Assembly (NCBI GenBank): GCA_002688925.1
Contig: NZEC01000006.1
Span: 27,385 to 88,826 of the forward strand
DNA: 61,442 nucleotides
Source: an archaeon
Lineage (GTDB): Archaea; Nanobdellota; Nanobdellia; Woesearchaeales; GW2011-AR4
Reading direction: 5' to 3'
Below are positions 3,227 to 61,442 of the stretch, piece after piece. The notes beneath the pieces are model-generated. The model had not been told where the DNA came from. It saw only the letters and a program-made list of their open reading frames with translations, and did not search any database. The position numbers and the translations under genes are program-made. The stretch's first letter is position 1, and every line of letters starts with the position of its first letter.

Positions 3227-3437
3227 TTTTTATTCACCTCATTTTTATTTGAAAAGTTTATATACCAATATTACTCATAACATTTTGAGGGCATCAAACT
3301 CCTGTTCCGCCAGGTTAGCGGGCTTTTTTTATTTTTAATAAAAATTGGGTTTGGGGCAGGAAATGTTTAGGGGTGAATTTTTCCTGCCAGCCTCCCAAAA
3401 ACATAATACTATGTTAATATTCAAATTCATTTATATA

Positions 3438-3490
3438 CCTCGCGCGAGGATGTCCAGTGCTAAGAAATGCCGTCGGTAACCACTGGACAT
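3438..3490 (+). repeat. GC palindrome CCTCGCGCGAGG followed by a 10-bp-stem hairpin; possible mini derivative of the stem-bounded element family
   Basis: The palindrome spans 3438-3449. ATGTCCAGTG (3450-3459) pairs with CACTGGACAT (3481-3490). The hairpin carries CCAGTGCT...AAATGCC...CACTGG, resembling the element termini. A similar architecture occurs at 53822-53888. Confidence 0.5.
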
Positions 3491-3549
3491 TATTTATTTT
3501 CAATAGTGAAAGAAATAACTTTTATATATAACAAAAATTACCAATATTC

Positions 3550-5647: not shown

Positions 5648-5721
5648 AAAACACCCCTAAACATGATTAAAATATTTATGGTATTTATTTGTTTTGTTTT
5701 TTATAGGGTCAACATTAAAAC

Positions 5722-5820
5722 AAGTGCTTATGCGTAAATTGCCAATGAAGCAAGCTCCGCAGGATATGTTATACGACCTGAGCAACGCATAGCGTTGCGA
5801 AGGGCCCCGCATAAGCACTT
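5722..5820 (+). repeat. stem-bounded element, copy A (short form)
   Basis: Perfect 13-bp terminal stem AAGTGCTTATGCG/CGCATAAGCACTT. Internal hairpin GCAACGC-ATA-GCGTTGC at 5782-5798. Lacks the TTGAGAAG...CTAAG block present in copies B-E. Confidence 0.85.
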
Positions 5821-5867
5821 ATTTTGTTAATAACCTAATTTTCCCAAAAGAAATCATCTAAAAAACC

Positions 5868-12872: not shown

Positions 12873-13010
12873 TGGGCCCAGAGGGATTCGAACCCCCGGC
12901 TTCAAGATGACTTCATCCTAGGGATTAAGCATCCTCTGGAAATAAGAGTCTCGCGCTCTTTCCTGCATCGCCTGAATTTCAAGCAAAGTACCAGGCTGAG
13001 CTATAGGCCC
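12873..13010 (-). tRNA. tRNA-Lys(CUU) with two introns
   Basis: Hand fold: acceptor GGGCCUA/UGGGCCC, D stem GCUC/GAGC, anticodon stem CGAGA/UCUUG with loop CUCUUAA, T arm GGGGG-UUCGAAU-CCCUC, discriminator A. A 30-nt insert (12959-12988) sits in the D loop and a 34-nt insert (12909-12942) follows position 37. No encoded CCA. Confidence 0.8.
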
Positions 13011-14479: not shown

Positions 14480-14527
14480 GATTTTTCCAGCTATTTTAAA
14501 AGTTTTGGTTTTTTAGAGGATAGTATC

Positions 14528-14650
14528 AAAGCCAGTGCTTGTGTGTAAATTGCCAAGTCAGAAAGCTCCGCAGGATGTGTTATACGACCTGAACAAACGA
14601 AGTTTGTGAAGTTGAGAAGCCATCTAAGGCCCCACACAAGCACTGGCTTT
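14528..14650 (+). repeat. stem-bounded element, copy B
   Basis: Perfect 18-bp terminal stem AAAGCCAGTGCTTGTGTG/CACACAAGCACTGGCTTT. Internal hairpin ACAAAC-GAA-GTTTGT at 14593-14607. Confidence 0.9.
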
Positions 14651-14706
14651 ATCATCTTTTAAGTAAAACCAAAAACTATAAAAACAGAATTAATTCCTGC
14701 TTTTTC

Positions 14707-15237: not shown

Positions 15238-15315
15238 AATAATTTTTTCTTTAATAAACTTAATTCAATATATTATGCAGGATATTTTACATTTTGTCAT
15301 AAGGTTGGAATAAAA

Positions 15316-15434
15316 ACCAGTGCTTATGCGTAAATTGCCAAGTCAGTCAGCTCCGCAGGATGTGTCATACGACCTGAACAAACGAAGTTTGTGAAGTTGA
15401 GAAGCCATCTAAGGCCCCGCATAAGCACTGGTTC
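15316..15434 (+). repeat. stem-bounded element, copy C
   Basis: Perfect 16-bp terminal stem AACCAGTGCTTATGCG/CGCATAAGCACTGGTT. The interior differs from copy B at only 3 positions. Confidence 0.9.
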
Positions 15435-15498
15435 TAACTTGCTCCTAATCAACAAAATTTTTAAATAAACCTAGTTTATCCTGTTATTGGTGGTTTAA

Positions 15499-26266: not shown

Positions 26267-27268
26267 TCACTTATGCTCTTTTTTAAACTTCCTTCTGTAC
26301 TCTGGCAGCGTTATTATCGGTCTTCTTTGTTTGTCTGCAATAATCTTATTTCTTAATGTATAACTTCCTGCTTCATCTATCTCAATTAAGTTGTATTTGC
26401 GCTTTATGCTGCCAACCTGTATAAGCTTGCCAAGAGTATTTGCCCTTTTTGCAAAAACCTGCAGGATTGCAAATGACATGTTGCTAAGCTGGGCAAGGTT
26501 TTGGTTTCTATGCACTCTTTTATACAAATCAACCTGGGCTATGCACCTAAGCCCGAACTTTTTTCTCATATCAATAAGCATTGCAGTTTCTACTCCATAG
26601 CCTGTAAAGTAAGGTATCTTCTCCAAAACTTCCCTTCTTGCAGCACCTTCTCCGCTTAAAGGCTGTATAAATCCTGAAAGCCTTGGAAAGTATTGGTTGA
26701 ATAAAGGCCTTACCAATAATTCAGTTACCCTGCCGCCTCCTAACGGCTCTGTTTTGCCGCCGATTTTTAATGGCCTAGTATAGAACGGCTTTGAATAGCT
26801 AATCCTGGGGTTTGTAAGCAATGGCCCTACAAGCCCGTAAACAAATCTTGGATGTATGTTTTTTATGTCTGCATCTATCCAGCAGATAATGTCTCCCTTA
26901 GCTGCATAAAGCCCTTTCCAGAGATTTTCTCCCTTGCCTTTGAAATTGCCTCTTCTTTTGAGAATATCAGAATCAAGATAAACTATAGCCCCTACTTTTT
27001 TTGCAATCTCTCTTGTTTTATCCTTGCTTCCTGAATCAACAACAATTATCTCATCAACAAGCTTGTATTTATCCATTAATTTGGACTTAAGAACAAAAAT
27101 TATCTTCTCTATTGTTTTTTCCTCATTAAGCGTTGGAATGCAGATGCTTATTGTCTGCTTCTGCTTTTTTTTTAATTCTACAAGCTTCTTAATGTTGGAA
27201 AAACTGGATGCTTTGTACTTGTTTTTCTCAAACCACTCGGCAACTTTAATAGTAAAAATAGTGGAATT
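26267..27268 (-). CDS. glucosyl-3-phosphoglycerate synthase-like GT-A glycosyltransferase (GT81-like); start codon unresolved
   Basis: VVDSGSKDKT, KGKGENLWKG, IDADI, GLVGPLL, GGGRVTELLVRPL, PLSGEGAARR and HRNQ. The first ATG is at 27076, but the same frame stays open to 27268. That extension encodes the family N-terminus (VAEWFEKN...TISICIPTLNEEKTIEKI) with no ATG, GTG or TTG. Confidence 0.65.
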   Translation of the reverse strand, partial: NSTIFTIKVAEWFEKNKYKASSFSNIKKLVELKKKQKQTISICIPTLNEEKTIEKIIFVLKSKLMDKYKLVDEIIVVDSGSKDKTREIAKKVGAIVYLDSDILKRRGNFKGKGENLWKGLYAAKGDIICWIDADIKNIHPRFVYGLVGPLLTNPRISYSKPFYTRPLKIGGKTEPLGGGRVTELLVRPLFNQYFPRLSGFIQPLSGEGAARREVLEKIPYFTGYGVETAMLIDMRKKFGLRCIAQVDLYKRVHRNQNLAQLSNMSFAILQVFAKRANTLGKLIQVGSIKRKYNLIEIDEAGSYTLRNKIIADKQRRPIITLPEYRRKFKKEHK

Positions 27269-27314
27269 TTATGATATATAAGTTTTGGCATTTTAAAGGT
27301 TAGTGCAAAAGTCG

Positions 27315-27426
27315 GCGCTTGCGCGTAATTTACCAATTCAGATATTTCCGAAGGGTTGATATATTCGACCTGAGCAACGCATAGCGTTGCGAAGTTGAGA
27401 AGAGCGTTAAGGTCCCGCGCAAGCGC
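27315..27426 (+). repeat. stem-bounded element, copy D
   Basis: Perfect 11-bp terminal stem GCGCTTGCGCG/CGCGCAAGCGC. The internal hairpin GCAACGC-ATA-GCGTTGC is identical to that of copy A. Confidence 0.85.
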
Positions 27427-27450
27427 GAAATAAACAAAAAATAATATAAC

Positions 27451-27458
27451 TTTATAAA
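27451..27458 (+). promoter_or_regulatory. TATA box TTTATAAA for panB
   Basis: It ends 22 nt upstream of the panB ATG, consistent with a leaderless or very short-leader mRNA. Confidence 0.45.
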
Positions 27459-27480
27459 CAAATTAAACTTACATTTGCCC

Positions 27481-28248
27481 ATGAAAACACCCAATAAAAT
27501 AAAATCCATGAAGGGAAAGGAAAAAATAACTATGCTTACTGCATATGACTGCTTTACAGCAAAAGCTATGGATGATACTGGAATTGACATCATTTTAGTT
27601 GGAGATAGCCTGGGCATGGTAATTCTGGGATATGAAAATACTTTAAGCGTAACTGTAGATGATATAATAAGGCATACCGGCGCTGTTGCCAGAGGTACAG
27701 AAAATGCACTAATTGTTGCAGACATGCCCGTAAACAGCTACAATGACAATGAAATTGCAATTTTAAACTCAGAAGCGTTTATCAAATCAGGAGCTCATGC
27801 AGTGAAGATAGAAAACAAGCCAGAAATTGCAAAGTTTTTAGTTGAAAACAAAATAGAGGTAATGGGGCATATTGGATTGACTCCTCAAACTGCTACTGAA
27901 TTTAAAGTCCAGGGAAAAGATGAAGAGACCGCAAAAAAACTAATTGAGTTGGCAAAAAAATGCGAGGAAGCAGGCTGTTTTTCTTTAGTTCTGGAATGTG
28001 TTCCTGTTGACTTAGCAAAAAAAATTACAGGCAGCATTTCAATACCTACAATTGGAATTGGCGCAGGGCCTTTTTGTGACGGCCAGGTTCTTGTATCAAA
28101 TGACATCCTGGGATTGTATGATAAATTAAGCCCGAAATTCGTAAAAAGATACGCTGATCTTGGAAGTGATATGAAAAGCGCATTTAAATCTTATATTAAG
28201 GAAGTGAAAGAAAAGAAGTTTCCTGATGATGATCATAGCTTTCATTGA
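27481..28248 (+). CDS. panB: 3-methyl-2-oxobutanoate hydroxymethyltransferase
   Basis: MLTAYD, LVGDSLGMV, and GHIGLTPQ motifs. ATG at 27481 is used rather than the TTG at 27475. Confidence 0.9.
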   Translation: MKTPNKIKSMKGKEKITMLTAYDCFTAKAMDDTGIDIILVGDSLGMVILGYENTLSVTVDDIIRHTGAVARGTENALIVADMPVNSYNDNEIAILNSEAFIKSGAHAVKIENKPEIAKFLVENKIEVMGHIGLTPQTATEFKVQGKDEETAKKLIELAKKCEEAGCFSLVLECVPVDLAKKITGSISIPTIGIGAGPFCDGQVLVSNDILGLYDKLSPKFVKRYADLGSDMKSAFKSYIKEVKEKKFPDDDHSFH

Positions 28249-41527: not shown

Positions 41528-41630
41528 TAGCCCCGCCAGGATTCGAACCTGGGTCCTCGGATGTTTTCGGTAAAAAACTTAATTCTTAACCACCAAAATC
41601 CGAGATGATTGGCCGCTACACTACGGGGCT
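41528..41630 (-). tRNA. tRNA-Gln(UUG) with canonical 30-nt intron
   Basis: Hand fold: acceptor AGCCCCG/CGGGGCU (A1-U72), anticodon stem UCGGA/UCCGA, loop UUUUGG[intron 41563-41592]A, T arm CCAGG-UUCGAAU-CCUGG, discriminator A. Confidence 0.85.
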
Positions 41631-56263: not shown

Positions 56264-56640
56264 GCGCAATGATTATCCTCACACCCATTCCTGCATAAAA
56301 ATAGGAATTGCTTTGGATTTTCATCCTCGCAATAGAATTCCATCAAATAATTCTTATTCTGGCAGTAATCCTTGAACTCGAACCTTGTTGAATTACCGTA
56401 AAAACCAAAAATAGAGCCATTGACCCACCTTACAATGCCATTATCAGTATCATGACACAACCTCACTGTAACTATATCTTCTTTTTCTTCTTCCACTATT
56501 ACAGGAACTTCCTTATCTTCAGCTTCAATCTCATCAATAACAGCTGCAGTAATTTTTTCTTCTTCCATTATTTCTTCTTTACCGCAGCCAAAAAGAAATA
56601 TAACCACAAATATCAATAAAAAAGAAATTATTCTTCTCAT
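56260..56640 (-). CDS. small Cys-rich lipoprotein
   Basis: Lipobox-like FLFGC after the signal peptide, an acidic linker, then a C-terminal Cys module DYC...FYC...LCRNGCEDNHC. Confidence 0.6.
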   Translation of the reverse strand: MRRIISFLLIFVVIFLFGCGKEEIMEEEKITAAVIDEIEAEDKEVPVIVEEEKEDIVTVRLCHDTDNGIVRWVNGSIFGFYGNSTRFEFKDYCQNKNYLMEFYCEDENPKQFLFLCRNGCEDNHCA

Positions 56641-56695
56641 AATAGTACTAATACTATAATTATATAAAAAGTTTTGGGAATATTTAGATTATTTA

Positions 56696-56883
56696 GAAAG
56701 CCAGTGCTTATGCGAAGCCTTAGAGGGATTCTCAACTGCGCTAAATAATTGAATATGTGTTCATAGTTGCTATGTTCGAAATGGCAAACTAAAACCCATT
56801 TTGATGGGTGACGGAAAATTTCTAATTTTCCCATCATGTATGGAATTTTGCCATTTCCACTATACGCATAAGCACTGGCTCTC
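56696..56883 (-). repeat. stem-bounded element, copy E (long variant, reverse orientation)
   Basis: The 16-bp perfect terminal stem 56699-56714/56865-56880 has the same CCAGTGCTTATGCG core. The GTTGAGAA..CTAAGGC block is shared with copies B-D when reverse-complemented. The interior is replaced by nested stems: 56778-56788/56847-56857, 56802-56808/56830-56836 and 56813-56820/56824-56831. Confidence 0.85.
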
Positions 56884-56950
56884 ACACCAACCAATATTTA
56901 GAAAAATTATTAAACCATTAAAAAAGAAATAAACAAAAAAAGCATAAAAA

Positions 56951-61080: not shown

Positions 61081-61386
61081 TTGACTTCCTCTTTGTTTTA
61101 TATTTACGCTTCCTCACCATTTTCTTTAATAATAAAAAAAGAATATTTAAATGTTTCTGAAAAACTAGCTCTAAATCGAAATCGGCTCTCCTTTCTTACT
61201 AAAAATCTTCTTCCGAGTAATAAGATATTCCTAGATGATTTATTCATCGATAAAGGTATTAATAAATATATTAGTGAAGATATTAATGAAGATATTAGTG
61301 AAGATATTAATGAAGATATTAGTGAAGATATTAATGAGGATATTAGTGGATATATTGGCAAATTTATCGATAGATTTATATACTAG
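61081..61386 (+). CDS. possible repeat-containing ORF (TTG start); coding status uncertain
   Basis: Contains the EDINEDIS tandem repeat. A paralogous 3' end lies at the window start, where the stop codon is mutated. Confidence 0.3.
   Translation: MTSSLFYIYASSPFSLIIKKEYLNVSEKLALNRNRLSFLTKNLLPSNKIFLDDLFIDKGINKYISEDINEDISEDINEDISEDINEDISGYIGKFIDRFIY
61276..61347 (+). repeat. tandem repeat, six 12-nt units (GAAGATATTAAT/GAAGATATTAGT alternating)
   Basis: Read directly from the sequence. The last unit carries one substitution (GAGGATATTAGT). Confidence 0.9.
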
Positions 61387-61442
61387 TTAATCAAAGTATA
61401 CTTTTATGGCGTTTGGAAGAGACATTTTATACAAAAAAATCA
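61347..61442. repeat. right copy of the diverged 96-nt direct repeat (partner 1-96)
   Basis: 83/96 identical in an ungapped hand alignment. Confidence 0.8.

Follow-up and report, generated by a model that had tools for sequence, protein, structure and literature searches.

A MITE-like element family at promoter edges in a woesearchaeal genome, its even distance from genes probably set by promoter geometry

A family of short, folded repeats in an archaeal genome of the order Woesearchaeales consists of transposons that stand in fixed phase to the promoters of neighboring genes, in random orientation, and with no promoter reading into them. The explanation that we consider probable is that this is a MITE-like family set at the promoter edge, and that its even spacing from start codons follows from a rigid promoter geometry. 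Our analysis further suggests that sites may be chosen at insertion, through the promoter sequence, a bend in the DNA or bound TBP/TFB, and not only by later selection. Targeting of this kind is favored by an excess over a null model of landing, by copies with intact target duplications in a related genome, and by independent insertions at orthologous promoters.

Copies in the window and their neighbors

The window is the whole stretch of 61,442 nucleotides that was analyzed. It holds five copies of the element, A to E, and the segment 27315-27483 comprises copy D and the gap up to the panB start. Please note that promoters in this article are predicted from sequence motifs. The copies and the motifs beside them are as follows.

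5680-5697, minus strand: motif beside copy A, 7.4 bits, outward, facing cdc6; 7 nt from the 5' end of A
5705-5842, plus strand: copy A, with a 16-nt internal deletion
14492-14509, minus strand: motif left of copy B, 8.4 bits, outward
14516-14667, plus strand: copy B, with outward motifs on both sides
14669-14686, plus strand: motif right of copy B, 10.7 bits; 38 nt before the ZPR1 ATG (14707)
15301-15452, plus strand: copy C, in a tandem context after ZPR1
15450-15467, plus strand: motif at copy C, 9.9 bits, abutting the 3' end of C
27273-27290, minus strand: motif left of copy D, TGCCAAAACTTATATATC, 8.2 bits (PWM scan), outward, 5 nt from the 5' end of D
27296-27451, plus strand: copy D (alignment, nhmmer and covariance-model hits, one of them at 27293-27451 with 147 bits)
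27443-27460, plus strand: predicted panB promoter motif, with a weak BRE and the TATA box TTTATAAA at 27451-27458; starts 38 nt before the ATG at 27481
56661-56678, minus strand: motif beside copy E, 11.2 bits, outward; 38 nt before the ATG at 56640
56682-56897, minus strand: copy E, a variant with a longer interior and the same termini
56899-56916, plus strand: motif on the other side of copy E, 8.3 bits, outward

Much of what a preliminary description of this DNA had recorded was reproduced. Measured from the element ends that it used, the gaps to the next ATG are indeed 56 nt for B (ZPR1, 14707), 64 nt for C (mtnP-like gene, 15499), 54 nt for D (panB, 27481), 55 nt for E (the ORF at 56640), and 74 nt for A (cdc6, 5647). 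The A/T boxes that it placed in these gaps are present (TTTATAAA before panB and TTTTATATAT at 3520-3529), as is the internal deletion of copy A, and the gene names are upheld by Pfam, which identified Cdc6, ZPR1, a PNP_UDP_1 phosphorylase (the mtnP-like gene), PanB, and acylphosphatase among the window genes. In contrast, the "mini copy" that it reported at 3450-3490 was recognized neither by the covariance model nor by nhmmer. The sequence at 3437-3490 consists of TTTATATA, then the palindrome CCTCGCGCGAGG, then a hairpin with an 8-bp stem (GTCCAGTG...CACTGGAC), and lies upstream of the predicted acylphosphatase promoter. It has one 8-mer in common with copies B and C, and was not detected as a family member.

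The motif at 27273-27290 is the predicted promoter of the leftward GT2 gene (26267-27268, minus strand). Before the first ATG of this gene (27076) the reading frame stays open for a further 58 codons, an extension that contains the start of the GT2 domain and no ATG, GTG or TTG. Near the usual position of a leaderless start, 38-40 nt from where the motif begins, there is an ATT (27250-27248). Since the domain begins within the extension, no canonical codon is available there, and the ATT is at the leaderless distance, it is likely either that the ATT serves as a non-canonical start or that the sequence contains an error.

Two further observations concern the window as such. At 12873-13010 and 41528-41630 (minus strand) lie tRNA genes interrupted once or twice by long insertions (introns); Rfam finds them and ARAGORN misses them. 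The window ends, 1-95 and 61347-61441, are direct repeats that are 87% identical, beside a 12-nt tandem array at 61241-61372.

Anatomy and distribution of the element

When copies were aligned together with their flanks, the outer stem P1 (GAGGTTGGTGCG...CGCACCAACCTC) proved to mark the ends of the element. The boundaries given in the preliminary description, which correspond to the inner stem P2, therefore have to be moved outward: the real element is larger and ends at P1, 19 nt farther out on the 5' side and approximately 24 nt on the 3' side. It is about 160 nt long, contains no ORF, and has terminal inverted repeats formed by the P1/P2 arms GAGGTTGGTGCGAAAGTC.GTGCTTATGCG ... CGCATAAGCAC......GATTTTCGCACCAACCTC, in which P1 (GAGGTTGGTGCGAAAGTC ... 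GATTTTCGCACCAACCTC) surrounds P2 (GTGCTTATGCG/CGCATAAGCAC). Within P2 lies a core with the conserved single-stranded runs GTAAATTGCCAAT, ACGACCTGAGC, GCGAAGTTGAGAAG, and CTAAGGC, together with a variable hairpin, P4. In copy D the 5' arm of P1 starts at 27296, P2 pairs 27315-27325 with 27416-27426, and the 3' arm of P1 is degenerate. The same arm is degenerate in copy B, the 3' end of which was estimated as the 3' end of P2 (14643) plus 24 nt.

The apical region of the element tolerates cargo, as seen in two copies. One, at G000 C20:19033-19246 (G000 being the host genome), has a hairpin of about 47 nt inserted in the P4 loop; the other, copy E, has an interior of about 110 nt between the shared termini that is entirely unlike that of other copies. 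A reduced copy of 47 nt, consisting of a short stem and the 3' part of the core, was found with nhmmer at G000 C11:98133-98179, about 20 nt past the purH stop codon.

The host assembly comprises 864.5 kb in 20 contigs at 34.5% GC. Searching all of it with nhmmer returned 30 full copies and about 10 others that are partial, mini or variant; truncation and internal deletion are common, and some copies bear insertions. A covariance model built from 25 copies counted 38 copies in the host genome and was searched against 40 relatives, 33 of which have none and five of which have 1-5 copies. The remaining two carry many: 72 in Ca. Woesearchaeota NC_groundwater_553 (JACPMQ01; hereafter G019), which belongs to the same family as the host and another genus, and 42 in G026, from another family of the same order. 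No Rfam family matched the element at the gathering score, where only tRNAs were returned, and a search with copies B and C at E<=10 gave nothing credible. Comparison of the core by eye with the hammerhead, twister, K-turn (C/D box), and H/ACA motifs led to the rejection of all four.

True covariance-model matches also occur on contigs binned as uncultured Methanosarcinales MAGs (L154, L137, L102, L149, and L144). The L154 contig is probably a mis-binned DPANN contig, given its score (135.6 bits), its GC content (31.6%), and a neighboring ORF 67% identical to a protein of the host genome. The weaker matches on the Methanosarcinales contigs could reflect sharing between host and symbiont.

Target duplications and the search for a parent element

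Insertion footprints are clearest in G019, where copies of the P1 type are flanked by 9-bp direct repeats that match at 8 or more of 9 positions in eight of nine copies, five of them perfectly (tail probability 1e-14). Among mismatched flank pairs, used as the null, only 1.4% reach this level. The signal in the host genome is weaker, at 3 of 19 copies versus 2.3% in the mismatched-pair null (p=0.009), and most duplications there have decayed; surviving examples are GCAGTAATA at 9/9 and (G/A)ATAATAAA at 8/9. The boundaries of the duplications coincide exactly with P1. The duplicated 9 bp lie between P1 and the BRE, overlapping the first 2-3 weakly constrained positions of the promoter motif, and it follows that the promoter belongs to the target and not to the element.

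G019 carries a second MITE as well, with the ends GTAACTGCTAACA...TGTTAGCAGTTAC and perfect 8-bp duplications (for example at L016, L040, and L048). About 112 of its ends occur per strand in a genome of about 1 Mb, and many contigs end in it. Most G019 copies of our element are nested within this second MITE, which forms a shell that encloses the core in either orientation.

The host genome contains no longer elements bounded by the same ends, and none of the transposases PF13610 (IS6), PF01609 (IS4/IS5) or PF00872 (IS256). PF13610 is absent from all three high-copy genomes, and the IS6 copies found in relatives lack these ends. A single IS4/5-like gene in G019 is likewise without the element's ends, and IS256 is also unlinked to the element. 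The lack of a cognate transposase is weak evidence, because the assemblies are incomplete (79-88%) and broken at repeats.

Members of the IS6/IS26 family have ends of the form GG..CTGTTGCAAA and make 8-bp duplications, and some P1 variants (GGTTGTTGCAAAAGTT) presumably resemble IS6-type ends. An IS6 origin, considered on account of this similarity, was rejected: the high-copy genomes hold no such transposase, and the duplication made here is 9 bp, not the 8 bp of IS6/IS26. Background on that family can be found in PMC7986276.

The element is a MITE, in that its ends, duplication, size, copy number, and patchy distribution all fit, without a known parent element.

Promoter geometry and placement of the copies

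In the host genome 882 genes were called, with 88% of the sequence coding. Expectation-maximization on 441 element-free upstream regions returned the motif (A/C)(A/G)AAAA-NN-TTTATATA, that is, BRE plus TATA. Its start forms a sharp peak between -38 and -40 relative to the start codon, for the most part at -38/-39, which implies that most genes are leaderless and that the distance from promoter to ATG is nearly fixed. Host mRNAs thus appear to be mainly leaderless, as far as motif positions can tell. A minority of genes have a leader with a GGTGG ribosome-binding site, such as the mtnP-like gene (15499) downstream of copy C.

With the real ends lying beyond P2, the gap between element and BRE/TATA shrinks to only 1-8 nt. 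Across 73 element flanks, outward motifs scoring 8 bits or more begin 4-8 nt from either P1 end, with a peak at 7 nt (10 flanks), and 26 of the 30 strong outward motifs start no more than 10 nt from an element end. Inward BRE/TATA motifs of at least 8 bits were found within 50 nt in none of the 73 flanks. Nor does any outward promoter lie inside the ends of the element; the motifs start 4-8 nt outside them, beyond the duplication or overlapping it. Upstream of P1 the string TTTAWAWA-N-TTTTG had suggested that each copy is a gene for an RNA, served by a TATA promoter of its own. This candidate was dropped: the BRE side faces the element and there is no inward motif, so the string is the neighbor's promoter seen from behind.

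The distances to genes follow from these figures. An offset of 7 nt plus 38-39 nt from promoter to ATG accounts for the observed mode of 45-58 nt between the P1 5' end and a divergent ATG; from the P1 3' end to the ATG the distance is 21-52 nt. Taken from the inner stem instead, these are the 54-64 nt of the preliminary description, and the genome-wide median to the ATG is about 63 nt (24 co-oriented 3' neighbors).

To compare placement with chance, the empty site was rebuilt for each copy and landing was taken as uniform over intergenic positions that cut no gene or strong core promoter; this null rests on our own gene calls and on present-day flanks. Seventeen of 32 copies in the host genome are promoter-adjacent versus 4.1 expected, a number reached in 0 of 200,000 simulations (P<5e-6). 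At roomy sites, where 40 or more positions were permitted, adjacent copies number 10 of 19 versus 1.2 expected. G026 copies, the ends of which are AT-rich and ill-defined, were left out of the positional statistics.

G019 allows the same comparison for copies that are demonstrably untrimmed. Among 11 shell-type copies with at least 7/8 of the 8-bp duplication intact, five sit at offset 5-8, versus 0.25 expected (0 of 500,000 simulations, P<2e-6), and their intact duplications exclude trimming after insertion at those sites. In addition, there are two loci at which the orthologous promoters of the host and G019 both have an insertion at the same edge. The two insertions differ in form (bare P1 type versus shell type), and at one locus in core orientation too; they are independent events in two genera.

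These results bear directly on the alternative that survives best, namely, that insertion is random, that copies sparing genes and promoters survive, and that a deletion bias then trims spare DNA. The compactness of the genome is in its favor: intergenic regions are short (medians 47 nt tandem, 145 nt divergent, and 27 nt convergent), the residual divergent spacers beside elements are minimal (approximately 66-92 nt), and the copies lie in 16 divergent, 21 tandem, and one convergent context, not far from the per-base expectation of 11, 22.6, and 4.4. However, insertions into genes or core promoters are excluded from the outset under the null described above, which still falls short of the observed counts, both overall and at roomy sites. 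Offsets cluster tightly around a peak of 7 nt, and young G019 copies with perfect duplications are already at offset 6 with no trimming. Selection and compaction on their own are therefore an unlikely explanation. The targeting preference at promoters, which the preliminary description had listed among several options, gains from the target duplications, the fixed phase to BRE/TATA above the null, and the independent insertions at two orthologous promoters.

Orientation of the copies

The preliminary description had also held that the elements are co-oriented with the gene downstream and present their 3' end to it, with copy A as the only exception, and had called for distance and orientation to be compared with chance across the genome. 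The distance part stands, since spacing is non-random; the orientation part does not. In a divergent spacer any orientation counts as co-oriented, which makes agreement automatic in 16 copies and leaves only the tandem contexts informative. Here eight copies run with the gene and 13 against it. One of the 13 is copy A, which, with its 5' end 7 nt from the outward motif facing cdc6, is placed like most copies. Genome-wide, either end may face a promoter, which refutes the 3'-end rule; the 5' end does so in 17 cases versus 8 for the 3' end. This asymmetry is not significant in one-sided cases once truncated copies are removed (9 versus 4), and neither are runs of orientation along contigs (15 same versus 9 switches, counted by eye).

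Random orientation weighs against a regulatory role, in which the element would serve the adjacent promoter, originally or after co-option, as an activator or repressor site, an insulator or a terminator hairpin. Archaeal regulators bind just upstream of the BRE, and the fixed position of the element there (peak offset 7 nt) is what such a role would predict; two families of one order share the conserved core motifs (CGACCTGAG...CGAAGTTGAGAAG), and the stems covary. Against this, either end may face the promoter, the neighbors are functionally unrelated (cdc6, ZPR1, panB, GT2, and a peptidase), about half of the copies have no adjacent strong promoter motif, occurrence among relatives is patchy and burst-like, and the insertions at orthologous promoters are independent rather than conserved. 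We consider a cis-regulatory module improbable, and the earlier suggestion of an upstream activator or repressor site finds no support in these data.

A covarying interior

The fold of the element is maintained across the order. Across 63 copies (host, G019, G026, and five low-copy relatives), standard pairs fill 97.3% of the cells in 27 model pairs, and 24 of the 27 pairs have changed on both sides, as compared with 29-45% paired in slid controls; the alignment was fitted to the model and so leans toward structure. G026 has a different P2 (ACACCACTGCC/GGCAGTGGTGT), yet it retains CGACCTGAG...CGAAGTTGAGAAG along with a long-range GCA/UGC pair that is compensated. Host copies are still about 77% identical and retain 97% base-pairing, although in most of them the duplications have decayed.

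Covarying stems are not expected as a need of a duplication-making (DDE-type) transposase. That identity and pairing are kept while duplications decay hints at a constraint beyond transposition. The covarying fold could possibly stem from arm-to-arm conversion in palindromes, from a folded single-stranded intermediate, or from an RNA- or protein-binding function.

A functional ncRNA gene family that spreads, transcribed on its own or from the neighboring TATA box read backwards, would account for this covariation, for the conserved unpaired motifs, and for the more frequent 5' ends at promoters; it is nevertheless the least probable of the explanations considered, in view of the complete lack of inward BRE/TATA motifs within 50 nt in the 73 flanks, the absence of an Rfam match at gathering score or E<=10, the many truncated and internally deleted copies, and the loss of significance of the end asymmetry without truncated copies.

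A model for placement, and comparison with known systems

The MITE-like reading can be summarized as follows. The element is a miniature non-autonomous DNA transposon, with P1 and P2 as its terminal inverted repeats and a strongly structured interior, and its insertion duplicates 9 bp of target. New copies would be placed, or would survive, preferentially with one end 4-8 nt from the upstream, BRE-side edge of a promoter, so that the duplication reaches just into the start of the promoter motif and leaves the promoter intact. An element at that edge would end approximately 40-50 nt from the ATG, or 55-70 nt when measured from the inner stem. Insertion at the promoter edge combined with a fixed promoter-to-ATG distance would thus produce the even spacing from genes, and the many copies between back-to-back divergent promoters would produce the apparent co-orientation.

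Prokaryotic MITEs and their general roles, including the Correia elements of Neisseria and the archaeal MITEs of Sulfolobus and Halobacterium, have been reviewed (PMC10969869). Like Correia-type MITEs, the present elements are small (about 160 nt), lack an ORF, have terminal inverted repeats and a duplication of fixed length, and occur in tens of copies; they are likewise intergenic, often just upstream of genes, fold into a long hairpin, and have internal inversion variants. The two differ in that Correia elements bring their own outward promoters and IHF sites, whereas here the promoter is the target's own and lies outside the duplication. The interior here also differs from Correia elements in showing RNA-like covariation, with loops conserved across an order, and no parent insertion sequence is known.

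In eukaryotes, Pol III start sites are the targets of Ty3, the regions upstream of Pol III genes those of Ty1, and Pol II promoters those of Tf1. The resemblance lies in insertion at a fixed short distance from the site of the basal transcription machinery, with the gene left intact. Ty3, Ty1, and Tf1 are retroelements with integrases tethered by known factors, whereas ours is an unrelated DNA-type MITE for which tethering to TBP/TFB is inferred; recognition of a sequence or bend is equally possible. Target choice by archaeal transposons is poorly known, and we know of no report of promoter-edge targeting outside the eukaryotic elements. In the literature that was searched, no such targeting by an archaeal MITE is described, a silence that is no proof.

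A bolder version of the targeting model can be offered tentatively, as a possibility that we would not expect to prevail. It would have integration guided by the archaeal pre-initiation complex or by the BRE/TATA bend, as a prokaryotic counterpart of Ty3/Tf1, apparently common to two MITEs with different ends and with 9-bp and 8-bp duplications. The covarying core, conserved across the order, would in addition function as a folded module of RNA or single-stranded DNA, either required for mobility or put to use by the host.

Significance

The richness of DPANN genomes in MITEs is already on record: a census of prokaryotic MITEs gives 105 MITEs/Mb for one Woesearchaea genome (PMC11602168). It concerns the same lineage and the same kind of element; the part of the census drawn on here does not describe this family, its structure or its placement at promoter edges.

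What looked like a regulatory "spacing rule" becomes a testable statement about transposon targeting, namely, insertion at the upstream edge of BRE/TATA. The family shows a largely leaderless genome organization with a rigid distance from promoter to ATG, and provides dozens of natural promoter markers for uncultured DPANN genomes. It also raises the puzzle of an RNA-like covarying fold that is kept by a duplication-making mobile element.
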